NCBI GenBank assembly: GCA_943841495.1 | Contig: CALSYL010000003.1 | Coordinates: 208,915 to 272,914 of the forward strand | Direction: 5' to 3' | Origin: an uncultured bacterium | Lineage (GTDB): Bacteria; Fidelibacterota; Marinisomatia; Marinisomatales; Marinisomataceae | Length of the DNA: 64,000 bases | Shown here: piece after piece, positions 6,656 through 62,639 of the stretch | Layout of the letters: every line of letters begins with the position of its first letter | Position numbering within the stretch: position 1 is the first letter of the stretch | Position numbers and translations under genes: made by a program | Notes under the pieces: generated by a model | What the model was told of the DNA's origin: nothing | Seen by the model: only the letters and a program-made list of their open reading frames with translations | Databases searched by the model: none

Positions 6656-7972
6656 ATGGCTAAAAAACCTAAAATAGCAATTATTGGACGTCCAAATGTT
6701 GGAAAATCTACATTATTTAACAAGCTTTCTGGTAAAAGAACATCAATTGTAGATCAATTAGAAGGAGTGACTAGAGACAGAGTTTATGCAAGCGCAGAAT
6801 GGCTTTCTCAGGAGTTTAATATAATAGATACTGGAGGTTTTGTTAGTTCAAATGAGGATATTTTTAATAAAAAAATAAAAGAACAGATCTCTGCAGCTTT
6901 AAATGAGTGTCATGGAATAATTTTTCTTGTTGACGGAAAAGATGGTTTAAATCCGAATGATAATCTTTTATCTAAATTAGTTAGAAAGTCTGGTAAAAAT
7001 TTTGTTATGGGTGTAAATAAGTGCGACACACCAGATCATCATCATAGAAAAGATCAATTTTTTGACATAGGTTTTGAAAATCCTTTTCCAATTTCTGCTT
7101 TGAATGGAGCAGGAATTGGAGATATGTTGGATGAATTATTTGAACATATTGATTTTAATTTAATTGCTAAGTCGGATGATGAAGAAGATTGCTCTCTTTC
7201 AATTGTAGGAATGCCAAATGTCGGTAAGTCATCATTATTAAATGCGCTACTTCAAAGAGACCAAGCAATAGTTTCAGATATAGCTGGTACTACTAGAGAC
7301 TCACTGGACACCATCATTAAATGGCATGGAAAAAATATAAAAGTAATTGATACAGCTGGTTTGAGAAAAAAGAGCAAGATGGATACAGATATAGAATTTT
7401 ATAGTTCTCTTAGAGCAATGGATTCTCTTCTAAGATCTAACTTAGTTTTACTTGTTGTTGATGCTGAAAAAGGATTCACTAAACAGGAAAAATCAATCGC
7501 TAAAGAAGTAATTAAAAAAGGCAAAAGAATGATTATTCTTGTAAATAAGTGGGACTTAGCTTCAGGAACTAATGTGTCTGCCGAATTATACAAAGAAGAC
7601 ATGTATGATGAATTCAAAGATTTAAGACACTATCCTATTTTATTTGTTTCTGCTTTAACAAAAAGAAGAGTATCCAACATTTTAGAAGTTGCTTGGGATA
7701 TTTTTATCAAGCAAAGAGAAAAATTATCAACTAAAAAACTAAATGAGTGGGTTGAAAGAGCTGTTAGAAATTATCCCCCTCCAGCTAAGCTAGGAAAATC
7801 AATTAAGTTAAAATTTATTGAACAGGTGCAACTATCTCCCCCAATCTTTGCAGTATTTAGTAATTATCCTAAATTAATTTCTGTACAATATTTAAGATAC
7901 TTGCACAACCAATTAAGGGATTCTTTTGATTTAAAGGGCATAACCATTAAGTTTTCTGTACGAAAAGGCTAA
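6656..7972 (+). CDS. der: Ribosome-associated GTPase Der (EngA), tandem GTPase domains plus KH-like C-terminus
   Basis: Two G-domains: GRPNVGKSTLFN...DTGG...NKCD and GMPNVGKSSLLN...DTAG...NKWD. Confidence 0.93.
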   Translation: MAKKPKIAIIGRPNVGKSTLFNKLSGKRTSIVDQLEGVTRDRVYASAEWLSQEFNIIDTGGFVSSNEDIFNKKIKEQISAALNECHGIIFLVDGKDGLNPNDNLLSKLVRKSGKNFVMGVNKCDTPDHHHRKDQFFDIGFENPFPISALNGAGIGDMLDELFEHIDFNLIAKSDDEEDCSLSIVGMPNVGKSSLLNALLQRDQAIVSDIAGTTRDSLDTIIKWHGKNIKVIDTAGLRKKSKMDTDIEFYSSLRAMDSLLRSNLVLLVVDAEKGFTKQEKSIAKEVIKKGKRMIILVNKWDLASGTNVSAELYKEDMYDEFKDLRHYPILFVSALTKRRVSNILEVAWDIFIKQREKLSTKKLNEWVERAVRNYPPPAKLGKSIKLKFIEQVQLSPPIFAVFSNYPKLISVQYLRYLHNQLRDSFDLKGITIKFSVRKG

Positions 7973-9264
7973 TGACAAAAAAACAAACTTATAGTTGGGC
8001 ATTATATGATTGGGCAAATTCTGCATTCGCTACAACAGTAATGGCAGGTTTTTTCCCAATATTTTTTTCTCAATATTGGTCCAATCCTGATAATTTATCT
8101 ATTAGCACTTTTTATCTAGGTCTTGGAAATTCTATTGCATCATTAATTGTTGCATTAATGGCTCCTGTTTTAGGAGCTATTGCAGATAGAGGAAGTTTTA
8201 AGAAAAAATTCCTTATTTTCTTTGCATTTCTAGGTATTGTAATGACCTTAGCTTTAGGGTTTATTGCTCAAGGAATGTGGCAAATTGCTTTGTTAGTATA
8301 TATTTTTTCGACTATTGGCTTTTCTGGTGCAAATATTTTTTATGATTCATTATTGCCCGCAGTTTCAGATGAAAAAAAGCGTAGATCAAGTTTCTGCACT
8401 AGGTTTTTCATTAGGATATCTTGGCGGGGGGTATTCTGATTATTATTAACTTTTTAATGATTTCATATCCTTCTGCTTTTGGATTAATTGATGCAGTTCA
8501 AGCAACAAAATACTCTTTTATTTCAGTTGCAGTTTGGTGGACTATATTTTCTTTGCCATTAATATTTTTTGTGGACGAGCCAAAGCTTCATAGTCAGGAA
8601 AGTATTAGAGACTCTATCAAAAATGGTTTGGCTCAATTCAAAAGCACTTTGATGATTTAAGAAAATTGAAAGTTGTTGCTACTTTTCTTTTGGCGTATTG
8701 GTTATATATTGATGGGGTCGACACTGTAGTTAGAATGGCAGCAAATTTTGCTTTTACTTTAGGTTTTGACCAAGCGGCTATAATGGGGGGCATTAGTTTT
8801 TATTCAATTAATAGCTTTTGTTGCAACTTTAGCATACATAAGACTTTCAAAATATATTGGTTTAAAAAAATGGTATATATTTAGGCATATGTGGATATTT
8901 AATTATTATTTTTGCAGGCTTTTTTACGGAGACAATCACCCATTTTTATATTGTAGCTTTTTTAATTGGTTGTTTTTCAAGGAGGAATTCAATCTCTTAG
9001 CAGGAGTTTATACTCAAGAATAATTCCTAAAGAGAAAGCTGCTGAATTCTATGGTTTTTATAATATGTTAGGAAAGTTTGCAGCAGTTTTTGGGCCCTAT
9101 TTTAATGGGAACCGTGACTTTTATTACTAAGTAATGTAGTTGATAATGAAATTTTAGCAGCTCGTTTTGGCTTATTGTCAATTATGATTTTATTTCTATT
9201 GGGAGGTTATATCTTCTCAAAAGTAGATATAGCTGAAGGCGAAGCAATCGCCAAAAATCTTTGA
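7972..9264 (+). pseudogene. MFS transporter, UMF1 (Atg22-like) family, broken by about 8 frameshifts (sequence error or decay)
   Basis: WALYDWANSAF N-terminus. The protein can be followed through all three frames, and track ORFs 7972-8439, 8421-8660 and 8666-8884 are fragments of it. Frame changes fall at A7 8372-78, G6 8426-31, T3 8648-50, G6 8785-90, A7 8864-70, T5 8973-77, C3 9095-97 and about 9128. Confidence 0.8.
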
Positions 9265-51848: not shown

Positions 51849-51975
51849 AATGAGAAATTTTTGGCTTCTTTTAAGCGTCATATGTATTTAATTAAAGTAG
51901 ATTCTCAGGGTAATCAAGAATTTTAAAAACCAATCTTTTCTCTAATTAAGTTCTCTTTTTTTATTATGTTTTGTA

Positions 51976-54374
51976 ATGGGAATTCGCTACAAAATTCTAT
52001 TTCTAATAATTATTCTATTCATCTTGATAAATTATGCTATCAATGCATTTTTAAACCCAGTTGAAGTCGCCTACGAAGGTATTAATACAGAGCTATCATT
52101 GTCAGATGATGTAGAAGTATTATTTGATGATTATGGCGTTCCAAGCGTTTTTGCTGAAAACGATTCTGATATGTTTAAAGTTGCTGGCTATATTGGCGCA
52201 AGAGATAGATTGTTCCAAATGTCTTTTATGAAATATGCATATAAAGGGCAACTAAGCTTAGTGGTTAATGACTCCCTATTTGCTGAAGATCGTTTTTTAA
52301 GAACCTTAGGGTTTGAAAAAACTGCAAAAAAAACGTTAGATAAAGTTTCTTCAGAAACAATGAAGCATTTGCAAGATACATGTTATGGAATTAATGCTTA
52401 TGCGCAAAGTTTAAGTCCTGCACAATATCCGTTAGAATTCAAGTTATTGCAGATAAAAGAATTACCTGTCTTTGAACCGTTAGATATTATTGCATTAAGT
52501 ACAATGATGGCTTGGGAGTTGCAAGGCGGATGGGATTCAGAGCTCTTTTTTGGAGCCATTAATGAACAGCTTGGCCCTGATTATTTAGAGGACATTTTAC
52601 CTTCATATGATAAAAATTTTGTAACCATCGCTTCCAACGATGTTTTGTTAAAAAGCTATCAGCAGTTTGCAAGCGATACGAAGAATTTAAGAAACCTCTT
52701 AAAAATTGACAGAGATGGTTATGGGTCCAATGCATGGGCTGTTTCAGGAGCAAAAACAACTTCTGGAAAACCGCTGTTAGCAAATGATCCTCACTTAGCC
52801 TACAATCAACCCCCATGGTGGTATGAAATAAGGCTTAAAAGTGACAACTTTAATTTTGGTGGGTATGGTCTGTATGGATTTCCTTTACCAGTCATTGGAC
52901 ACAATGAGCATATTGGGTGGGGATTCACTAACGTGATGACTGATGATATGGATTTCTACATAGAATCCTTAAACGAAGATCAAACTCAATATTATGTTGA
53001 TGGTGAATGGAGAGATTTACTAATTGAAGAAGAAGAGATAGTGTTAAAGTCTGGAGAAAGGCGTAAAATTACTATTCGTTCTACACATAGAGGTCCTATT
53101 ATTAGCAATATTCATCGAGATGCTAAAGCTTTAAATAAAGCAATTTCCTTTCAATGGACAGAGTATGATGCTTTTGACGAAACTACTGCATTGTTTATGC
53201 TTGCTCAGGCATCCAATTGGGAAGAATTTTCTGAAGCTTCAAAATTGTTTGGTGCTCCTGGACAAAATTGGACATATGCGGATAAAGAGGGCAATATAGG
53301 ATGGAGACCTAGTTCAAAGATTCCAATAAGACTTGACGCAGAAAAACTTGTTCCATTTGATGGAAGCACTACAAAACATGATTGGCAAGGCTATATCCCT
53401 TTTGATGAAATGCCTTATCTTGTTCAATCCAAAAAAAGGATATATTTCAAACGGAAATAACAAAACTATCGGAGAAGAATATCCATATTATATTTCGCGT
53501 TATTGGGCTGACCCAAGTAGAGGAGAACAGATTGATAGAAGATTGAGAGTTAATTCCAAGCTTGATGTTGAAGATATGAAGTCAGTCTTAAATGATATTT
53601 CCATCACCATTTGCTCAAGATTATGGCCCTTTATTTTTAAAGAATTATGTGAAAGGTTTTTCAGATAATGGTGATATTATATTTTCCATGCTTAAAGATT
53701 GGGATGGCGTTGAATCTATAGATTCAAAAGGAGCTGTTGCTTTTCATGCTGTATATATTCATTTAGTTCAAAATCTATTTCAAGATGAACTCCAAAGTTT
53801 TGGAAATGATTCTTTTGATACATTTTATAGCCTTAAATATATCCGTTCATTGGCAATAAGAAGTATTTTTGATGGAGAGGCAACCTTGTGGGTTGATAAC
53901 GTCCTTACGAGCGATTTAGAGAGTCTTAGTGATATTGTAAACCAATCTTTCGATGATGCATATAGCTTTCTTGATCAAAATTATGGAAATCCAACTACTT
54001 TGACATGGGGCGATGTTCATCAAGTAACATACAGTCATCGTCTTGATAAAGATCCTCTTGTTAAAAGATTTATAAATTTTAGCGTAGGACCATATCCGAT
54101 GGCAGGCTCTGGCATGACTCCAAGAGCTGCAAGTTATTCTGTGAGTAGTCCTTTTGAGGTTAGAGCAGGCTCATCAATGAGAAGAGTGATTGATTTCTCT
54201 AATTTTGATAATGGATTTAGTATTCTTCCTACGGGTCAATCAGGCTTATTTAGATCGAAACATTATGATGATCAAACCGATATGTACAACAAAGGTGAAT
54301 TTAAGCCTTTTAGATTTTCATATGATGCTTTAGACAAAGCAAAATCTTCTAAAATGATTTTCCAATCTAAATAA
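51976..54374 (+). pseudogene. Penicillin/AHL acylase (Ntn-hydrolase, PvdQ/penicillin G acylase family), two frameshifts
   Basis: N-terminal TM/signal, the YGSNAWAVSG autoprocessing Ser-Asn site, NDPHL and NPKKGYISNGNN. Track ORFs 51976-53460, 53333-53668 and 53592-54374 are consecutive pieces. Shifts lie near 53420 and 53603. Confidence 0.8.
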
Positions 54375-54382
54375 TATTTTCC

Positions 54383-54411
54383 TTGAATCCGTATATACCG
54401 ATGATTAAACT
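54383..54411 (+). promoter_or_regulatory. Candidate sigma-70-type promoter (TTGAAT-17 nt-TAAACT) for the aromatic operon leader
   Basis: Hexamers at 54383-54388 and 54406-54411. The predicted start near 54418 would make the leader-peptide ORF leaderless. Promoter rules for this lineage are unknown. Confidence 0.3.
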
Positions 54412-54417
54412 AGTCTA

Positions 54418-54477
54418 ATGAGCACATTTTATAACTATTATTTTTATTTTAGAAGCAGGGGGACTGTAGAAGCCTAA
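54418..54477 (+). CDS. Candidate Phe/Tyr-rich attenuator leader peptide MSTFYNYYFYFRSRGTVEA
   Basis: ATG at 54418 and TAA at 54475-77. Codons 54427-54450 read TTT TAT AAC TAT TAT TTT TAT TTT, giving 3 Phe and 4 Tyr in 8 codons. It sits between the candidate promoter and the terminator, upstream of the Phe/Tyr operon. Confidence 0.55.
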   Translation: MSTFYNYYFYFRSRGTVEA

Positions 54478-54514
54478 AGATAAACTTATATCAAGACTCT
54501 ACATGAACCCTAGC
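54455..54514 (+). promoter_or_regulatory. Candidate antiterminator pairing
   Basis: GCAGGG (54455-60) and TGTAGA (54465-70) can pair with TCTACA (54498-503) and CCCT(A)GC (54508-14). This sequesters the 5' arm of the terminator stem. Paired by eye, no energy computed. Confidence 0.4.
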
Positions 54515-54535
54515 AAAACCCGCTAGGGTTTTTTT
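54506..54535 (+). terminator. Strong intrinsic terminator / attenuator 17 nt upstream of the chorismate mutase ATG
   Basis: AACCCTAGC-AAAACCC-GCTAGGGTT (GC-rich core 54508-14 with 54522-28) followed by a T7 run at 54529-54535. The GGAGG SD at 54543-47 and ATG at 54553 follow directly. Confidence 0.8.
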
Positions 54536-54552
54536 GTTATATGGAGGAAAAA

Positions 54553-54815
54553 ATGAACAAAAAAATATTAGAAAACAGAGATAGAATAGATAAAGCCGAT
54601 AATCAAATTTTTGATTTATTGCTTGAAAGATTGGATGCGGTAAATACAATTGGATACGTCAAAAAACAAGAAGGATTACCGAGTTTTGGATCAAGAAAGA
54701 GAAAATGCGATTTATGCTAAAATTGATGCAAGATTTTCTGACTGTAGAAGCTTCATTTTTAAAGCCTATCTATGAAACTATCATTACCGAATCAAAGAAA
54801 GTAGAGGAATTATAA
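54553..54815 (+). pseudogene. AroQ-class chorismate mutase, two +1 frame changes (about 54682 and about 54740)
   Basis: NRDRIDKADNQIFDLLLERLDAVNTIGYVKKQEGLP / VLDQERENAIYAKIDARFS / TVEASFLKPIYETIITESKKVEEL read in frames 1, 2 and 0. The stop overlaps the next ATG (TAATG). Confidence 0.75.
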
Positions 54816-56156
54816 TGTCAAAATGGACAAAAAATTCATGGAAGAATTTTACCATAAAACATATCCCTGATTATAATGATACTAAACAGCTTGAGAAAGC
54901 GTTGAAAAAATTGGAAGGATTTCCTCCCTTGGTTTTTGCCGGAGAGTGCAGAAATTTAAAAGAAGAATTAGCTAAAGCAAGTAATGGAGATGCGTTTTTA
55001 GTGCAGGGAGGTGATTGTGCTGAGAGCTTTAAAGAGTTTAACGCAAATAATATTAGAGATACATTTAGAGTCATTCTACAGATGAGTGCGGTTATTACAG
55101 CTAAATTAAAAGTACCTGTAATTAAGCTTGGAAGAATTGCAGGTCAATTTGCAAAGCCTAGATCTTCTGATCGAGAAACAATTGATGGTAAGACTTTAAA
55201 TAGCTATTACGGAGACTCAATTAATGGAATAGAGTTTTCTGAAGAGAAGCGTGAACCAAATCCTGCTAGACTATTAAGGGCTTATTCTCAGTCGGCCTCA
55301 ACACTCAATTTATTGCGATCTTTTGCGCAGGGAGGCTTTGCAAATCTGCGTAAAGTTAACTCCTGGAATATGGGATTTGTCAAGGCTAGCGAAGAAGGCA
55401 AAGAGATATGAAGAGATTGCTGGTAAAATTAATGAATATCTAGATTTTATGGATGCAGTTGGCGTAAATACTTCTACTGTAATTGATCTAAATACTGTTG
55501 ACTTTTATACTAGCCATGAAGGGTTGCATTTGCCTTACGAACAAGCCTTAACACGAGTGGATTCACTTTCAAATGAAGTATTTTGTACTTCAGCACATTT
55601 TATTTGGATAGGTGATAGAACTCGTTTTATTGATAGTGCACATGTTGAGTACTGTAGTGGAATAAGCAATCCAATTGGTATCAAATGTGGTCCTAGCCTA
55701 GATAATGAAGAGTTAATAAAAATAATAGATAAAATTAATCCTACCAATGAACCTGGAAAGATTTCACTTATTTTTAGATATGGTGAAGAAAATATCGATA
55801 AATATCTTCCAGGATTAGTTGATACTATTGTCAAAAACAATAAGAATGTTTTATGGATATCGGACCCAATGCATGGAAACACTGTTAAGTCCTCATCGGG
55901 CCTAAAAACAAGAGACTTTAGTGCTCTTTTAAACGAAACCAGTAAAGCTGTTAACATTCTGAAAGCAAAAGACCGACATCTTGGAGGGATTCATCTAGAA
56001 ATGACTGGACAGAATGTAACCGAATGTACCGGAGGTATTTATAAGGTTGGAGATGATGATTTGAATTCTAGATATCATACGCATTGCGATCCAAGATTGA
56101 ATGCAAATCAAGCTTTAGAGCTTTCATTTAATATTGCTGAGGCATTAAAGAAATAA
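54815..56156 (+). pseudogene. Class II (plant/actinobacterial-type) DAHP synthase, one frameshift near 55395-55402
   Basis: WTKNSWKNF...PPLVFAGE...FLVQGGDCAESF, then after the shift RYEEIAGKINEYLDFM...HFIWIGDRTR...DPMHGNT...HLE. Track ORFs 54815-55411 and 55323-56156 are the two halves. Confidence 0.85.
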
Positions 56157-57407
56157 ATGCAATTTAAGGGAACACTGTATTTACCAGGAGATAAATCAAT
56201 TTCTCATCGTGCAATAATGCTTTCATCTATTGCAAATGGAAAAAGTATAATCAGAAATTTAAATGATGGAGATGATCTACAATCTACAATTAGCGTATTG
56301 AAAGCTTGTGGAGCAAAGATTAATAGGATTAATAAAACTATTGAAGTTGAAGGCGTAGATTTAATTAGTCCAAATAAAGAGCTAGACTGTGGTAATTCTG
56401 GAACTACTACAAGGCTAGTTTCAGGACTTTTATCCTCACAGGGATTAAATTTTACACTCATAGGCGATGATTCATTATCATCAAGACCAATGAAGCGAAT
56501 TATTATTCCGCTGCAAAAAATGGGTTGTAATATTTCTTCTAGCAATAATGTATTGCCCTTAATTATAGATGCAAAAAAAGGAACATATCCCATTGACTAC
56601 AAAGTTCCTGTTGCTAGCGCTCAGGTAAAATCATGTATTTTACTCGCAGCCTTGGGAGCTGATAAGCCGTCGACTATTCAAGAGGATATTTTAACAAGAA
56701 ATCATACAGAGATTATGTTGAGTACTATGGGTGCATCAGTGAGTGTTCAAGATAAAATTATTACCATCAATCCTCTAAATAGCAAACTAAGTCCTATTGA
56801 TATAACAATACCTTCTGATCCATCGTCTGCAGCGTTTTTTGCAGCTTTGGCTGTATTGAATGACGATTCAGAATTAACGCTTAATAATGTACTTTTAAAT
56901 AAAACTAGAATTGGATTTATGGAAGTACTTAAAAAAATGAATTGTCATTTATCTATTGATAATAAGCAGTTGAATAATGGAGAAGAGGTTGGAGATATAA
57001 CTTTTAGTACTTCCACAATTCATTCAACAGAAATAGAGTCCAAAATAGTCCCTGCAATCATAGATGAAATACCTATTTTAGCTGTTGTAGCTGCATATTC
57101 AAATGGTGTTACGATATTTCGAAATGTAGAAGAGTTAAAATACAAAGAATGTGATAGATTGCATGCAATTATACATAATCTAAATGCTTTTGGAATTAAT
57201 GCTTATGAAAAAGAAGATAGTCTTTTTGTCGAGGGAGGTAAGCCTGATAAGCTGGCTGAAATTGCAACTTTTCACGATCATCGAATAGCTATGGCTTTCA
57301 CAATTTTAAGTTTAACATCGTTTGGAAAATATCACCTAGATAACAAAGATTGCATCGATATTTCACTGCCAAACTTCTTTAATTTGATAAAAAGGGTAGC
57401 TAAATGA
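56157..57407 (+). CDS. aroA: 3-phosphoshikimate 1-carboxyvinyltransferase (EPSP synthase)
   Basis: LPGDKSISHRAIML, GNSGTTTRL and DHRIAMAF motifs. 416 aa. Confidence 0.94.
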   Translation: MQFKGTLYLPGDKSISHRAIMLSSIANGKSIIRNLNDGDDLQSTISVLKACGAKINRINKTIEVEGVDLISPNKELDCGNSGTTTRLVSGLLSSQGLNFTLIGDDSLSSRPMKRIIIPLQKMGCNISSSNNVLPLIIDAKKGTYPIDYKVPVASAQVKSCILLAALGADKPSTIQEDILTRNHTEIMLSTMGASVSVQDKIITINPLNSKLSPIDITIPSDPSSAAFFAALAVLNDDSELTLNNVLLNKTRIGFMEVLKKMNCHLSIDNKQLNNGEEVGDITFSTSTIHSTEIESKIVPAIIDEIPILAVVAAYSNGVTIFRNVEELKYKECDRLHAIIHNLNAFGINAYEKEDSLFVEGGKPDKLAEIATFHDHRIAMAFTILSLTSFGKYHLDNKDCIDISLPNFFNLIKRVAK

Positions 57408-58225
57408 AATATGCACTGATAGGTAATCCAGTTTCTAAAAGCATTAGCCCAGAATTACACAAACTTTTGTACAAAGAATTAGATATTAAAGATTGTTTTC
57501 TTGAAAAAATTCAACTTACTGAACGTGAGTTAGATAGTTTTTTTGAGGATGTGATTACATCTTATAATGGGTTAAATGTTACTATTCCTTTTAAGAATGA
57601 AGTAATAGGCTATTTAGATAAGCTTGATACAGAATCATCAATATTAAAGAATGTGAATTGTATTGCAATAAAAGAGGGTGTTTTAAAAGGTTACAATACA
57701 GATAAATATGGTTTTGATATGCTTTGTTCAAGAAACGAGATTGTAGTAAAGAATAAAAAATGCATGGTTTTAGGGGCAGGTTCTTCTGCAAAAACTATTA
57801 TTAAATCGTTGATCGATTCAGAAGCAAGAGAGATTATCATTAAAAATAAAAGCGAAAAAAATGCACTAGAAGTTATAGAATTTGCCAAAAAATTAGGCTT
57901 TGACAACATAGCTTTATTTGGCAAGCAGCAATCAACGTGTGAATTAGTCATTAATACAACTCCTCTTGGAATGTATTCAATGGAAGACAAAGATAATTTT
58001 TTTGATATTACTATAAATGAGAATACGGATTTAATTGATCTTGTTTACATATCTAAATCAACACTGTTCTTAAATAGATTTGAAACTAACGGAAAAAAAG
58101 TTAATGGTTTAGATATGCTAATATTTCAAGCATTGAAGTCTATTGAAATTTGGAATGAAACTACCTATAATGTGAATTCAAAAATTGATTCCATTATTAA
58201 ACAATTGGAGAAAATACTATGTTGA
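57404..58225 (+). CDS. aroE: Shikimate 5-dehydrogenase
   Basis: IGNPVSKSISPELH, LNVTIPFK, GYNTD and VLGAGSSAK motifs. ATGA overlap with aroA. Confidence 0.9.
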   Translation: MKYALIGNPVSKSISPELHKLLYKELDIKDCFLEKIQLTERELDSFFEDVITSYNGLNVTIPFKNEVIGYLDKLDTESSILKNVNCIAIKEGVLKGYNTDKYGFDMLCSRNEIVVKNKKCMVLGAGSSAKTIIKSLIDSEAREIIIKNKSEKNALEVIEFAKKLGFDNIALFGKQQSTCELVINTTPLGMYSMEDKDNFFDITINENTDLIDLVYISKSTLFLNRFETNGKKVNGLDMLIFQALKSIEIWNETTYNVNSKIDSIIKQLEKILC

Positions 58226-59379
58226 AGAAAATATCATATATGACCGCTGGAGAGTCGCATGGAAAAGGGTTGACTGGAATCATCGAAGGAATTCCTGCAG
58301 GACTAGAGCTTACAGAGGAGTATATAGCAATAGATTTGCTTAGAAGAATGCAGGGTCATGGTAGAGGAAAAAGAATGAAAATCGAGAAAGATTTCGCTGA
58401 AATTTTTTCTGGAGTTCGTCATCAGATTACTTTGGGTTCTCCCATTGCATTAATAATTAAAAATTTAGATTGGGTTAATTGGGAAGATAGAATGGCGGTT
58501 GGAAAGCCAAAAAAAGATCATAAAAAAGTTACAATGCCCAGACCTGGTCATGCTGATTTAGCAGGAGTAATGAAATATGATTTTGATGATATTCGAAATG
58601 TATTAGAGAGATCATCTGCTAGAGAAACAGCTATGAGAGTTGCAATTGGAGCGATTTGTAGAAAGTTGCTAGAGGATGTAGGAATACAAATTGGAAGTAG
58701 AGTATATCAAATTCATGATATTGTTGACACTAAAGCAATAGATAAAGATTTAAATATGTCAAAATTGAACAGTTTAGCGGATAAGTCTTCCGTTAGATGT
58801 CTTGATAAAGATGCTGAGAAAAAAATGATTGATGTAATTGATCAAGCAAAAAACAATGGAGATTCGGTGGGTGGGTCTTTTGAAGTTATTGCAACAGGAA
58901 TGCCATATGGCTTAGGAAGCTACATTAATGCAGATGGAAAATTGCAGGCCAGAATATCTCAAGCAATGATGTCTGTAAATGCTTTCAAAGGTGTAGAGGT
59001 TGGAGCAGGATTTGCTTCTTCTGCAGTATTTGGGAGCGAATTACATGATGAAATATTGTATGAGAATAATAAAATCACTAGATCAAGCAATAATGCTGGA
59101 GGTATTGAAGGAGGAATGAGTAATGCTCAGCCTATTCATGTAAAAGTGAGTATGAAGCCTATTTCTACGCTTATAAAGCCACTTAGATCAATTGATTTAA
59201 CAACAATGGAGCCAAAACTTGCTCACAAAGAAAGAACGGATTCATGCGCGGTTCCTGCTGCATCAATTATTGGTGAAAGTATGTTAGCTATTGTTTTGGC
59301 AGATGCTTTATTAGAAAAATTTGGTGGCGACAGCATGGAACAATTAAGAAAACATATTGAGAGCAGTGGAAAATATTAA
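58219..59379 (+). CDS. aroC: Chorismate synthase
   Basis: TAGESHG, RPGHAD, SARETA and GGIEGGMSN motifs. 386 aa. An alternative start at 58240 is possible. Confidence 0.94.
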   Translation: MLKKISYMTAGESHGKGLTGIIEGIPAGLELTEEYIAIDLLRRMQGHGRGKRMKIEKDFAEIFSGVRHQITLGSPIALIIKNLDWVNWEDRMAVGKPKKDHKKVTMPRPGHADLAGVMKYDFDDIRNVLERSSARETAMRVAIGAICRKLLEDVGIQIGSRVYQIHDIVDTKAIDKDLNMSKLNSLADKSSVRCLDKDAEKKMIDVIDQAKNNGDSVGGSFEVIATGMPYGLGSYINADGKLQARISQAMMSVNAFKGVEVGAGFASSAVFGSELHDEILYENNKITRSSNNAGGIEGGMSNAQPIHVKVSMKPISTLIKPLRSIDLTTMEPKLAHKERTDSCAVPAASIIGESMLAIVLADALLEKFGGDSMEQLRKHIESSGKY

Positions 59380-59875
59380 TCAACTATGTTTAATTGGTAT
59401 GATGGGGTCTGGAAAATCTTCCACTGGAAAAATACTTTCAGAAAAGCTTGGATGGGATTTTATTGATATTGATCAAGAAATTATGGACTGTAAAAATTTA
59501 TCAATCAATGAACTGTTTAGTAAAAGCGAAATACAATTCAGGGAATTTGAATACGATGAAATAAAAAAGCATTCTTCTAGAGATAAGATTGTTATAGCGG
59601 TTGGTGGAGGAGCAGTTGCTTTTAAAAGGAGTTATGATCTTATGTCTCAGATGTTATGTATATATCTAAGTACATCTACTCATATATTGGCTGATAGACT
59701 TAAGGATGATTCTTCAAGACCTTTACTTGAAGAAAAGAACAAGTACCAAATGCTTGAAAAGATTTTTAATCAACGAAAAGAATTGTATCTTTCCTTGTCG
59801 AGACATCAGATTATTACTGACAACAATACTATCGATGATAATTGTAACAAAATAATTGGATTGATTAATGACTAA
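59357..59875 (+). CDS. aroK: Shikimate kinase
   Basis: LIGMMGSGKSSTGK P-loop and VGGGAV. Non-ATG start (TTG 59357 or GTG 59366) overlapping the aroC end. Confidence 0.88.
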   Translation: MRAVENINQLCLIGMMGSGKSSTGKILSEKLGWDFIDIDQEIMDCKNLSINELFSKSEIQFREFEYDEIKKHSSRDKIVIAVGGGAVAFKRSYDLMSQMLCIYLSTSTHILADRLKDDSSRPLLEEKNKYQMLEKIFNQRKELYLSLSRHQIITDNNTIDDNCNKIIGLIND

Positions 59876-60938
59876 TAGTATTAAAGTAGATTTAGGTTTA
59901 GATAGTTATAAAATAAATATGATTGATAGTTTTGCAGGCTCAATATCAAATATTGCCTCAGCAACAGAATCTCAATGCATGCTCATTAGCCAAGAAAATA
60001 TTTACAAGCTATATAAAAATAAATTCGATCTATTGTCTAGACTACCAAATGTTAGTATTTATCTTATAGATGATGGAGAGCAAACTAAATCATTTGAAAC
60101 AATTACACAAATTACCAATAAGATGGCTTCAGAGCACTTTGATCGCTCATCAATTGTTTTTGCTGTGGGTGGGGGAGTAGTAGGAGATATTGCAGGTTTT
60201 GCTGCGTCAATTTATATGAGAGGAGTTGATTATATCCAATATCCTTCTACGTTACTAGCTATGATAGATTCTTCCATTGGAGGAAAAACTGGTATCAATC
60301 TTAGAAGTGGTAAAAATCTGGTTGGAAGAATTTATCAACCAAAAGCAGTTGAAATAGATATAAATTTTCTATCAACGCTTCCAAGTAGACAAATAAATGC
60401 CGCTCTAGCAGAAGCAGTAAAATATGGATTTATCTATGATAAGCAATTATTTGAGTTAATTGCTTCGAGCATTGACGATATTTTAAAAAGTAGATCAATA
60501 AAAATTTTAGAAAAAATTATAATACAATGTTGTGAAATAAAGAGCGATGTTGTTAGCGAAGATGTAAATGAACATGAATTACGAATGATATTGAATTTTG
60601 GACATACGGTTGGGCACGCAATCGAGGGTTATTATGACTATAAAAAACTGTTGCACGGAGAAGCAATTTTTTATGGGATGAAATGTGCTTTATACCTATC
60701 AAATAAGTATGGAAATCTTTCAAACGATGAGTACAATGAGTCTTTAGATCTGCTATCAAAATTTGATCTACCCTCCGTTAGAATTAAAGATTATGATAAG
60801 TTTATGAACTATATTAAAAGTGATAAGAAAATCAGAGCATCAAATGTAAAGTTTATTTTGTTGGATGAGATTGGAAAATCGCAAATAAATGATAATATAT
60901 CATTTGAGCAAATTAAAGAGAGTTTAAAAGTATTATGA
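59868..60938 (+). CDS. aroB: 3-dehydroquinate synthase
   Basis: GGGVVGDIAGFAAS, PSTLLAMIDSSIGGKTGIN and NFGHTVGHAIE metal site. 356 aa. Confidence 0.93.
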   Translation: MTNSIKVDLGLDSYKINMIDSFAGSISNIASATESQCMLISQENIYKLYKNKFDLLSRLPNVSIYLIDDGEQTKSFETITQITNKMASEHFDRSSIVFAVGGGVVGDIAGFAASIYMRGVDYIQYPSTLLAMIDSSIGGKTGINLRSGKNLVGRIYQPKAVEIDINFLSTLPSRQINAALAEAVKYGFIYDKQLFELIASSIDDILKSRSIKILEKIIIQCCEIKSDVVSEDVNEHELRMILNFGHTVGHAIEGYYDYKKLLHGEAIFYGMKCALYLSNKYGNLSNDEYNESLDLLSKFDLPSVRIKDYDKFMNYIKSDKKIRASNVKFILLDEIGKSQINDNISFEQIKESLKVL

Positions 60939-61363
60939 AAATAATTATTATAAATGGACCCAACCTTAACTTGTTAGGAGAGAGAGAGCCAGAAATTTAT
61001 GGTTATGATTCTCTTGAGGAAATAAATAATTGGATTAAAAACCACAATAGTTGCCAAAATCTTGACCTTGAATTTTTTCAATCTAATTCAGAAGGAAGTA
61101 TCATAGATTTTTTGCATCAAAAAAGAAAAGATACTGATTATTGCATTCTGAACGCAGGGGCTTTAACACATTATTCTTATGCCTTAAGAGATGCAATAGC
61201 AGCAACACAATTAAAAACCGTTGAAGTGCATTTATCCAATATTAACAAGCGAGAAAATTTTAGAAAGACCTCCGTGATTAAAAATGTTTGTATTGGTCAA
61301 TTTTATGGCGAGGGAAAACAAAGTTATATTAAAGCAATTGAGTACATACTGGAGAAAAAATGA
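60935..61363 (+). CDS. aroQ: Type II 3-dehydroquinate dehydratase
   Basis: IIIINGPNLNLLGEREPEIYG, ILNAGALTHYS and EVHLSNI motifs. ATGA overlap. Confidence 0.93.
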   Translation: MKIIIINGPNLNLLGEREPEIYGYDSLEEINNWIKNHNSCQNLDLEFFQSNSEGSIIDFLHQKRKDTDYCILNAGALTHYSYALRDAIAATQLKTVEVHLSNINKRENFRKTSVIKNVCIGQFYGEGKQSYIKAIEYILEKK

Positions 61364-61929
61364 ATAAAATTGGAATTCAAGGAATTGAGGGTAGCTTTAG
61401 CGAACAAGCAGCTAAGTCTTATTGTCAAAAATTTGGTATAAATGAATATGAGTTGGCGTACTTGGTGGGCTCAATGAATGTGTTAAATAGCCTAACAGAT
61501 GGAAGCATTGATACTGGAATCTTTGCAATGGAAAATGCCCAAGGTGGTGTAGTGATTGAAAGCATCGAAGCTTTAGCAAAAAATCAATGCGAAATAATTG
61601 ATATGTTTTATGTAGAGATTAGTCAGAATTTACTTGCAAAGGATGGAGTTGCTTTAGGAGATATTGAAGAAATTCATTCTCATCAACAGGCCTTAAAGCA
61701 GTGTAAAGATTATTTAGCTGAAAAATTTTGGTCAAAAAAACTTGTCGAAGAAGATGATACTGCCAAAGCTGCACAAGATTTGTCAGAAGGAAAATTATCA
61801 GAAAATGTAGCAGTAATAGCTAGCAAATTTTCAGCTGAAAAGTATGGTTTAAACATTCTAGAAAAAGACATTCATGATTTAAAAAGAAACTTAACTCTTT
61901 TTCTAGCTGTGAAGAAGTTACAATCATGA
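61360..61929 (+). CDS. pheA: Prephenate dehydratase, catalytic PDT domain only (no ACT domain)
   Basis: IGIQGIEGSFSEQAA start and ENAQGGVV. It ends ...NLTLFLAVKKLQS, with TLF in place of the usual TRF. 189 aa. The tyrA ATG overlaps its stop, so no room remains for an ACT domain. Confidence 0.85.
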   Translation: MNKIGIQGIEGSFSEQAAKSYCQKFGINEYELAYLVGSMNVLNSLTDGSIDTGIFAMENAQGGVVIESIEALAKNQCEIIDMFYVEISQNLLAKDGVALGDIEEIHSHQQALKQCKDYLAEKFWSKKLVEEDDTAKAAQDLSEGKLSENVAVIASKFSAEKYGLNILEKDIHDLKRNLTLFLAVKKLQS

Positions 61930-62639
61930 ATAAAGTAAGTATTATTGGGTATGGAAGATTTGGAGCAATGTTACATGCATTGCTTTCTAAAGGGTTTGAA
62001 GTAGATGTATATGATAAGAAGCAAATTAATAGCTCTGATGTAAATGAAGTGTCTTTGAAAGATGCTCTTAAAAATGAAACAATTTTTATAGCTGTTCCTA
62101 TCAGAGATTTTGAATCATTAATTCATGAAATTAAAAATGATATCCAAGGCAACAAAACTGTTATAGATGTATGCTCTGTTAAGGTGTTTCCTAAAAATGT
62201 TATGACTCAAAATTTATCTGCTGAGATTGATATTATAGCCACTCATCCACTCTTTGGTCCTGATTCTTTAAAGGATAGCGGTTCTGTAATGACAATGGAA
62301 TCAGTGAGAGATTCATATGGAAGGTTTGAATTTTGGAAAAATTATTTTGATAGCCAAAATATAACCATTGAAGAGATTTCAGCTGAAGAACATGATATGA
62401 TGGCAGCAAGATCGCAGGGATTGACTCATTTTGTTGGAAGGGTAATAGATGATTTTGGTACAGATCAAACAAGGATTGATACAGAAGGATATAAGGCATT
62501 ACATAAATTAGTCAATCAAACTTGCAATGATTCATGGGAGTTATTTGAAGATATTCAAAGCTATAATCCTTACACGCAAAAGATGGTATCAGAATTAAGT
62601 GAAAGTTTCAAAAAAATTAACGAAATTTTAAAAAAATAA
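61926..62639 (+). CDS. tyrA: Prephenate/arogenate dehydrogenase (short, no ACT domain)
   Basis: VSIIGYGRFGAML Rossmann start, DVCSVK, ATHPLFGP and a TyrA-type EEHDMMAARSQGLTHF helix. 237 aa. Confidence 0.85.
   Translation: MNKVSIIGYGRFGAMLHALLSKGFEVDVYDKKQINSSDVNEVSLKDALKNETIFIAVPIRDFESLIHEIKNDIQGNKTVIDVCSVKVFPKNVMTQNLSAEIDIIATHPLFGPDSLKDSGSVMTMESVRDSYGRFEFWKNYFDSQNITIEEISAEEHDMMAARSQGLTHFVGRVIDDFGTDQTRIDTEGYKALHKLVNQTCNDSWELFEDIQSYNPYTQKMVSELSESFKKINEILKK

Follow-up and report, generated by a model that had tools for sequence, protein, structure and literature searches.

A candidate leader-peptide attenuator rich in phenylalanine and tyrosine codons precedes a ten-gene aromatic amino acid operon in Marinimicrobia

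In a 64,000-nucleotide (nt) stretch of DNA from an uncultured member of the Marinisomataceae (GenBank assembly GCA_943841495.1, contig CALSYL010000003.1, positions 208,915 to 272,914), referred to here as the window, the spacer upstream of a chorismate mutase gene holds a short open reading frame (ORF) rich in phenylalanine (Phe) and tyrosine (Tyr) codons, followed by a predicted intrinsic terminator. We consider it likely that this element is a ribosome-mediated leader-peptide transcription attenuator which tunes a ten-gene operon to the supply of charged tRNA-Phe and tRNA-Tyr. The leader sits 5' of the chorismate mutase gene in at least 68 genome or metagenome copies, at least 51 of them unique, from three clades of Marinimicrobia (SAR406). 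An attenuator had been proposed in an initial annotation made from the sequence letters, and every refutation test that could be run, namely those of ORF conservation, of the pairings, of the antiterminator fold and of the link to chorismate mutase, was favourable to this interpretation.

Conservation of the leader ORF

The leader ORF reads ATG AGC ACA TTT TAT AAC TAT TAT TTT TAT TTT AGA AGC AGG GGG ACT GTA GAA GCC TAA (54418-54477) and lies, together with its Phe/Tyr run (54427-54450), just where the initial annotation had placed it; the features are collected in Table 1. The same annotation had cautioned that TTT and TAT are frequent by chance. This is true of the triplets as such, as Phe/Tyr codons make up 11% of all triplets in the window, but the run is the only 8-codon stretch with at least seven Phe/Tyr codons in the six frames of the 64 kb, where shuffled sequence gave a mean of 0.24 such stretches (at least 7 of 8) per 64 kb, and it has been kept in relatives. 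The uniqueness of the run in the window is suggestive when taken alone, and it is the comparative data that are decisive.

Searching one genome per species with the N-terminus of DAHP synthase placed the organism of the window in Marinimicrobia (SAR406, Neomarinimicrobiota) and returned 27 related loci covering the upstream region (loci and contigs are cited below by L numbers where needed). A metagenome scan anchored on the 18-mer TTTTTTGTTATATGGAGG gave about 36 true leaders among the matches listed, many of the others being unrelated AT-rich sequence; this anchor misses clade C and variants in the U tract or in the Shine-Dalgarno region. Contig look-ups contributed four further copies. Two chorismate mutase protein queries and four contig look-ups brought no relative from beyond the three clades, returning near-identical leaders or contigs that end at the chorismate mutase gene, and the covariation that can be seen is limited for this reason. 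An nhmmer profile run over the 1.3 Mb of gathered sequence found no additional leader copies, only reverse-strand self-matches of the hairpin and a weak match to L171, considered below.

The leader peptide takes the form M(S/R/N)KFYNYYFYFRSRGTV(E/D)A in clade A, to which the window belongs, MKNFF(N/D)YYYFRSRGTVEA in clade B and MKNFN(Y/N)YYFYFRC(K/R)GTIGA in clade C. In all 68 copies among the matches listed, with 26 peptide variants between them, the frame is open over 17-19 codons with 5-7 Phe/Tyr codons, and no stop codon or frameshift was found. TAT is one step away from both TAA and TAG, yet no variant of a Phe/Tyr codon yields a stop. Within clades, five of the nine variant types at these codons remain Phe/Tyr, against about two of nine expected by our calculation from random single-base changes, and they include synonymous TAT/TAC and TTT/TTC changes as well as Phe/Tyr swaps. 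There is free variation at codons 2 (S/R/N/I) and 3 (K/N/T), as would fit a leader whose peptide is itself without function. Relatives therefore keep the ORF, its frame and its Phe/Tyr run.

The gene lying 5' of the leader differs between relatives, being a penicillin amidase by Pfam in the window, an amidase generally in clades A and B, a 1109-amino acid (aa) cadherin/Ig-repeat protein in L010, and trpB-trpA in clade C. Chorismate mutase keeps the leader through all of these changes, which indicates that the element is part of the aro operon, rather than of the acylase gene. The possibility that the hairpin only ends the acylase message, which the initial annotation had named as a refutation, is contradicted by the presence of the leader behind the cadherin-like gene and behind trpA.

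Terminator and antiterminator

The terminator hairpin (AACCCTAGC, loop AAAACCC, GCTAGGGTT; 54506-54530, with T7 at 54529-54535) has a CCCTAGC-N7-GCTAGGG core extended by two A-U pairs, and its predicted energy is -14.3 to -15 kcal/mol. With 10 pairs, 5 of them G-C, it is the strongest terminator-like site that the pattern scan found between 50 and 64 kb. Only 17 nt (54536-54552), GGAGG included, separate it from the chorismate mutase ATG. Hairpin, T7 and this short gap with its GGAGG are all as the initial annotation had described them; its further remark that intrinsic terminators are otherwise rare in the window holds for strong sites, of which there are only two, but not for the total, which is near chance (35 sites found versus about 26 expected). 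The other strong hairpin lies at 73-100 on the minus strand, has 12 pairs with T-runs on both sides and is possibly bidirectional.

Every pair of the stem is kept (100%) in 27 distinct sequences, and U6-U9 follow it across the relatives. Two double changes, independent of each other, preserve the pairing: G-C to A-U (CCCUAAC/GUUAGGG in L021, L022 and L169) and C-G to U-A (CCUUAGC/GCUAAGG in L120 and L162). Single-side changes are of four kinds among the copies listed, and all of them give a G-U wobble. In clade A only, the loop AAAACCC can also pair with GGGUUUU (54515-54532) as an alternative 7-bp hairpin compatible with the antiterminator; being absent from clades B and C, this hairpin is probably incidental.

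When transcripts were cut before the 3' arm of the terminator and folded with RNAfold, the minimum-energy fold was an antiterminator in all clades, at -14 to -19 kcal/mol (-17 kcal/mol for the window). In this fold the G-run at the 3' end of the ORF pairs with the CCCU of the terminator 5' arm and is stacked, through a small internal loop, on a UGUAG(A)/(U)CUACA helix. The duplex is more stable than composition-matched shuffles, with z = -3.4 in the window and -2.1 to -4.8 in the other clades. The alternative pairing drawn by eye in the initial annotation is thus the minimum-energy fold of the truncated transcript, although its register at the G-run was one base off. From the alignment, RNAalifold recovers the terminator and the long-range helix UGUAG (54465-54469) / CUACA (54499-54503), and one G-C pair of this helix has become A-U in all clade C sequences, so that the alternative pairings are conserved in relatives with compensatory changes in both the long-range helix and the terminator.

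The full-length fold also contains a helix of the 1:2 type between the Tyr/Phe codons and the stop-codon region (54438-54446/54475-54483). It is 87% paired; the same columns pair in clade B, two of them being changed on both sides, and the register differs in clade C. Clade B leaders end with UAA UAA UAG, three in-frame stops (L009:3665-3673) that form the perfect complement of CUAUUAUUA. We suggest only tentatively, from the modelled folds, that this helix acts as an anti-antiterminator. Another element of the full-length fold, an inner GCAG/CUGU mini-hairpin, was rejected as it is not conserved in L005, L008 and clade C.

Promoter-like elements

Upstream of the ORF, the spacer between the -35-like and -10-like hexamers is of constant length, 17 nt in clade A and 18 nt in clade B, and of variable sequence. 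TAAACT is found in 42 of the 43 unique clade A and B leaders among the matches listed; in clade C its place is taken, at an equal distance, by TAATAT or TAAAAT. The -10-like hexamer ends 6 nt before the leader ATG in clades A and C and 7 nt before it in clade B, and this conserved geometry suggests that the leader mRNA is probably leaderless or nearly so. The leader ORF has no Shine-Dalgarno sequence. We rejected this as an argument for a leaderless start, because a Shine-Dalgarno-like motif is present in only about 40% of the genes of the window and its lack is therefore uninformative. An attenuator leader peptide of Corynebacterium glutamicum is reportedly transcribed leaderless.

Predicted effect of ribosome position

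A ribosome footprint, from -14 to +13 relative to the P-site, was masked in silico at each codon of the leader, and the probability that CCCU is sequestered was read out on the truncated transcript. Full-length equilibrium folding with the same kind of mask had been set aside in favour of truncated transcripts; there the U tract pairs with A-rich 5' sequence, which made the outcome differ from clade to clade. With the A site at any position up to codon 10-11, the Phe/Tyr codons included, CCCU is sequestered with a probability of about 0.97. From codon 12 to the stop, this falls to about 0.01-0.1 in the window, L003 and L009, and to 0.1-0.5 in L020. Varying the 3' extension of the footprint from +9 to +16 leaves the boundary of the switch at codons 11-13. 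With no ribosome on the leader, folding predicts the antiterminator, so that read-through would be the default and termination would require translation to the stop. The ribosome logic of the initial annotation, in which a stalled ribosome frees the upstream strands and a ribosome at the stop masks them, agrees with these in silico results.

From these folds the following mechanism can be proposed. Transcription would proceed from TTGAAT-17-TAAACT and start at or a few bases from A54418, and the ORF would be translated from a leaderless or nearly leaderless message, as its geometry suggests. With Phe and Tyr plentiful, the ribosome would pass the seven Phe/Tyr codons and reach the UAA at 54475-54477, where its footprint would cover 54455-54470, that is, the G-run and UGUAGA; CCCUAGC (54508-54514) would then pair with GCUAGGG (54522-54528), and the polymerase would terminate at U7, 17 nt before the ATG. 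With Phe or Tyr scarce, the ribosome would stall within 54427-54450, leaving 54455-54470 exposed to pair with 54498-54514 once these are made. The terminator 5' arm would in this case, as modelled in silico, be sequestered by the antiterminator, and the polymerase would enter the operon. Perhaps the weak helix 54438-54446/54475-54483 stops the antiterminator from re-forming after release of the ribosome.

Sibling leaders with tryptophan codons

Independent support for an amino-acid-specific logic comes from leaders with tryptophan (Trp) codons, which have the same layout and stand before trpE in related genomes. The clade C contig L169 (18.9 kb, L169:1-18893) carries, in order, an amidase gene, a Trp leader, trpEGDCFBA, the Phe/Tyr leader, and the genes for chorismate mutase and DAHP synthase, then aroA, aroE, aroC, aroK, (aroB), aroQ and the genes for prephenate dehydratase and prephenate dehydrogenase. 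This is a 17-gene co-directional aromatic supraoperon with two candidate leader-peptide attenuators; clades A and B have no trp genes at this site. No gene is called at L169:14585-15669, where aroB would be expected, and this may indicate a frameshift.

The Trp leader ORF of L169 (L169:2600-2659) encodes MNNNLKTWKWYFQVGGSVL, with the Trp codons arranged as W-K-W. It is preceded by TTGCAA-17-TAATAT-6-ATG and followed by a G-run, a UCUUGU/ACAAGA helix and a terminator (AAACCCCG/UUUAU/CGGGGUUU and a U-run) that ends 7 nt before the likely trpE ATG. Its Trp codons take part in a clear 1:2 helix, and masked folding predicts a footprint-dependent switch as in the Phe/Tyr leader. Trp leaders were found before trpE in four more Marinimicrobia contigs (MIDMNTNNYYSWYWFFNHKGVS, MNYKNIENYYNWYWFFSLKGVT, MNNMNTKYFYSWYWFFNREGVS and VNNNLKTWKWYFQVGGSVL), one of them with a compensatory change in the equivalent helix. 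Three Trp leaders read YY-x-W-Y-W-FF and so hold codons for all three aromatic amino acids. In the Trp leaders the -10-like hexamer ends 6-8 nt before the ATG, no Rfam family was matched at gathering score, and the profile of the Phe/Tyr leader gave a weak match of about 115 nt to that of L171 (nhmmer, E = 0.0076). Two elements of the same layout, each with codons matching the pathway encoded downstream, are hard to explain except by ribosome sensing.

Directly 5' of the Trp leader and trpE, three of these contigs have a second small type II chorismate mutase gene (L170:2048-2317, L171:2049-2321, L172:2048-2323), without a leader of its own.

Points against the attenuator and alternative explanations

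Several points weigh against the attenuator interpretation. TTT and TAT are common codons in DNA of 31% GC. The promoter proposed in the initial annotation, TTGAAT-17-TAAACT, is present with conserved spacing, but it agrees with the consensus at only 8 of 12 positions and stays under the threshold of the scan. Where transcription starts, whether it ends at 54535 and how it responds to Phe and Tyr are deduced from sequence and folding, and the physiological response is throughout one that we infer. The sequences are very similar (mean column identity of 81%), and covariation consequently rests on few events, of which the long-range helix contributes one and the terminator two; the G-run:CCCU pairing shows no variation, so that covariation neither supports nor contradicts it. 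The 1:2-type helix is better than shuffles only in clade B. At equilibrium the terminator, at -14.3 kcal/mol, has an advantage of about 5 kcal/mol over the part of the antiterminator that competes with it, and the choice between the two must then be kinetic, as it is in the classical trp attenuator. Since the antiterminator forms without a ribosome, untranslated read-through from the upstream gene would escape control. Finally, Tyr supply was without effect in the comparable aroR system of C. glutamicum, where only Phe limitation was effective according to PMC11802643, and the Tyr codons of the present leader may likewise not be sensed.

Among other explanations, the one that survives best, though we still find it improbable, is that the ORF is translated and senses Phe/Tyr while the output is chorismate mutase translation, mRNA stability or Rho-dependent termination, the hairpin being mainly the terminator of the upstream gene. 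Between the leader and the gene that precedes it, which is the amidase gene in clades A and B and trpA in clade C, there is no other terminator, so the leader hairpin must end the transcripts of these genes too, and the hairpin lies just 8 nt from the Shine-Dalgarno sequence. Against this, the hairpin with its U6-U9 is a canonical intrinsic terminator, fully paired and with compensatory changes, the competing helix takes up specifically the terminator 5' arm in every clade, and RNAalifold on the leader alignment places the Shine-Dalgarno sequence in no conserved pairing.

A cis-regulatory RNA switch, read by a protein, a small molecule or a tRNA, with an untranslated ORF whose Phe/Tyr codons would be a by-product of a U/A-rich structure, is a further possibility to which we give little credence. 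In the 3' half of the ORF (AGCAGGGGGACUGUAG) nucleotides are conserved while amino acids change (T/N, E/D/G, R/G), and the last four or five Phe/Tyr codons are invariant in nucleotides, a constraint that pairing with the stop-codon region could impose; the lack of a Shine-Dalgarno sequence at the ORF would also fit, were it not uninformative in these genes. Translation of the ORF is favoured by the alignment, where the sole gap block within the ORF is of 3 nt (clade B is without that codon, at which L028 retains AGC) whereas those elsewhere are of 1, 2 or 5 nt, and by the lack of stops and the preferential keeping of codon class in the 68 copies described above. A ligand- or protein-binding RNA would have no need of the Trp codons found at the equivalent place before trpE. 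Nor was an Rfam riboswitch or T-box matched: over the 64-kb window no Rfam family reached its gathering score, and hits at E up to 10 were at chance level only.

It is hardly credible that there is nothing regulatory here and that a chance short ORF lies in an AT-rich spacer beside an ordinary acylase terminator, because, even if the triplet and shuffle frequencies given above make a single occurrence not decisive, the noncoding leader is more conserved across clades than the adjoining chorismate mutase coding sequence, it tracks chorismate mutase and not the acylase, the frame and run persist in relatives that are too diverse to be assembly duplicates of one sequence, the antiterminator beats its shuffles, and a Trp-codon sibling exists.

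Table 1. Coordinates of the leader elements, of the operon and of the Trp-codon sibling leaders (window positions unless a contig is given)
Feature	Position	Strand	Basis
-35-like hexamer TTGAAT	54383..54388	+	Read directly; TTG invariant in clades A and B (TTGAAT or TTGCTA)
-10-like hexamer TAAACT, 6 nt 5' of leader ATG	54406..54411	+	Read directly; relatives
Leader ORF, 19 codons and stop, MSTFYNYYFYFRSRGTVEA*	54418..54477	+	Letters read directly
Regulatory codons TTT TAT AAC TAT TAT TTT TAT TTT (TTT three times, TAT four times; Phe/Tyr 7 of 8)	54427..54450	+	Read directly
Segment 1 (UUAUUUUUA), tentative partner of 54475-54483	54438..54446	+	Full-length minimum-energy fold
Antiterminator 5' strand in the 3' end of the ORF: GCAGGGGG, AC, UGUAGA	54455..54470	+	Folds of truncated transcripts
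Tentative segment 2b: stop UAA and next bases (UAAAGAUAA), pairs with Tyr/Phe codons	54475..54483	+	Folding
Segment 3: UCUACA, UGAA, CCCUAGC (shared by antiterminator and terminator 5' arm)	54498..54514	+	Folding, alignment
Predicted intrinsic terminator: AACCCUAGC, loop AAAACCC, GCUAGGGUU, U7 tract	54506..54535	+	Pattern scan, folding
Shine-Dalgarno GGAGG (54543-54547) and chorismate mutase ATG (54553-54555)	54543..54555	+	Read directly; all clades
Regulated operon, ten genes	54553..62639	+	Pfam; equal order in L169
Trp leader regions	L169:2560-2722; L173:2330-2505; L170:2320-2505; L171:2322-2505; L172:2324-2505		Promoter, G-run, helix, terminator

The operon and its gene calls

By Pfam, the ten genes downstream of the leader encode chorismate mutase, class II DAHP synthase, EPSP synthase (aroA), shikimate dehydrogenase (aroE), chorismate synthase (aroC), shikimate kinase (aroK), dehydroquinate synthase (aroB), type II dehydroquinase (aroQ), prephenate dehydratase and prephenate dehydrogenase. 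Every one of the seven shikimate steps is covered by the operon, and so are chorismate mutase and both terminal branches. This confirms that Phe/Tyr biosynthesis genes lie downstream, and the match between control codons and operon output noted in the initial annotation is borne out.

Set against L077, a metagenome contig of 99.26% identity, the window shows six single-base insertions, at 53419, 53602, 54553, 54682, 54742 and 55403, and two intergenic single-base deletions, at 51849 and 51944. The insertions break the penicillin amidase gene into three ORFs, that of chorismate mutase into three frames and that of DAHP synthase into two. Between the leader of the window and that of L077, the sole difference is how long an A-run precedes the chorismate mutase ATG. 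Elsewhere in the window, a membrane-transporter-like gene (7972-9130) is present as four ORFs in different frames (7972-8439, 8421-8660, 8666-8884 and 8966-9130). These frameshifts are either assembly errors or real pseudogenes, and assembly errors are the more probable cause.

Public gene calls are affected by the leaders in relatives as well. Calls of trpE with 512-526 aa start within the Trp leader and read through its terminator (L169:2620-4200; P0174, P0208, P0212 and others, of 512 aa), and two chorismate mutase calls, P0001 (90 aa) and P0099 (96 aa), start at an ATG that lies within the Shine-Dalgarno sequence or 5' of it. All these starts are probably mis-annotated because of the leaders, which is of consequence for the annotation of trpE and chorismate mutase wherever gene calls run through or into such elements.

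Discussion

The mechanism proposed here is a known one, and what is new is the phylum, the codon mix with seven of eight Phe/Tyr codons, the ten-gene scope, the probably leaderless message and the tandem arrangement with a Trp attenuator in one clade. Against 54416-54538, the Rfam Phe_leader family (RF01859) scored 16.9 bits (E = 2.5), far from its gathering score of 55, and the leader is therefore not a member of that family. In the literature searched, we found no link of Marinimicrobia or SAR406 to leader peptides or attenuators.

The functionally closest known system is the aroR-aroF attenuator of C. glutamicum, where, as described in PMC11802643 (citing Neshat et al. 2014), a leader peptide with Phe-Tyr-Phe precedes the aroF (DAHP synthase) operon. 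The two have in common a short, mixed Phe/Tyr leader peptide, an operon with DAHP synthase and, as proposed here, attenuation by ribosome stalling, and the promoter geometry suggests that the present leader may be leaderless too. They differ in that the phyla are unrelated (Marinimicrobia belong to the FCB group), there is no sequence similarity, the run here has seven Phe/Tyr codons in eight against three, and the operon covers all seven shikimate steps, chorismate mutase and both branches, in one clade behind a Trp attenuator. The initial annotation had considered a mixed Phe/Tyr leader unusual in such a lineage. It appears less so in view of aroR (PMC11802643), of the leaderless leader peptides documented in Actinobacteria, in Streptomyces (PMC8079986), and of a suggested pheL-like leader in Bacteroides. 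Outside the Gammaproteobacteria, to which pheL is essentially confined, Bacteroides and Desulfobacterium are tentative cases (PMC3082878). A survey from 2010 gave leader-peptide systems from Proteobacteria and Actinobacteria only, besides its own case from Firmicutes (PMC2965389).

With pheL-pheA of Escherichia coli, the leader shares a Phe-rich peptide, alternative hairpins and control over chorismate mutase and prephenate dehydratase activity; in contrast, Tyr codons are here as numerous as Phe codons, no 1:2 hairpin is clear, the Shine-Dalgarno sequence is missing and ten genes follow. The four-segment logic of trpL (RF00513), in which the position of the ribosome on the regulatory codons picks the antiterminator or the terminator, would apply here as well, and the sibling Trp leader (L169:2600-2712) has W-K-W codons and a clear 1:2 helix. 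For the Phe/Tyr leader, whose 1:2 element is weak, the folds predict read-through instead of super-attenuation in the untranslated state.

The clade C arrangement, with trpEGDCFBA head-to-tail with chorismate mutase, the aro genes, pheA and tyrA (17 genes), recalls the aromatic supraoperon of Bacillus subtilis, aroFBH-trpEDCFBA-hisC-tyrA-aroE, which is regulated by TRAP. Gene order and content differ, and two leader peptides, Trp and then Phe/Tyr, stand in the place of an RNA-binding protein.

It is possible, though we hold this with less than even confidence, that Marinimicrobia have a lineage-specific family of leaderless aromatic leader peptides in which one scaffold is re-coded for each end product, with two members in tandem in the 17-gene supraoperon of one clade and the Phe/Tyr member acting as a two-state element that is ON by default and needs translation to terminate. 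The shared scaffold may consist of a -10 hexamer, the ATG, regulatory codons, the G-run, a stop-codon helix and a C-run terminator, and the members may be the Phe/Tyr leader (chorismate mutase, aro, pheA, tyrA), the W-K-W leader (trpE) and the YY-x-W-Y-W-FF leader (trpE). If this is true, the last of these would point to sensing across pathways, with all three aromatic amino acids as signals. The tandem Trp and Phe/Tyr leaders, together with Trp leaders that hold Tyr/Phe codons, offer a natural series in which attenuator re-coding can be studied.

A textbook mechanism documented almost entirely in Proteobacteria and Actinobacteria would, on the attenuator interpretation, operate in three clades of an abundant, uncultured marine phylum, where one element would gate the pathway in its entirety, from DAHP to both amino acids. 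How many transcripts stop at about 54535, relative to those that read through, could be taken from existing ocean metatranscriptomes as a sequence-level reporter of Phe/Tyr limitation in SAR406.

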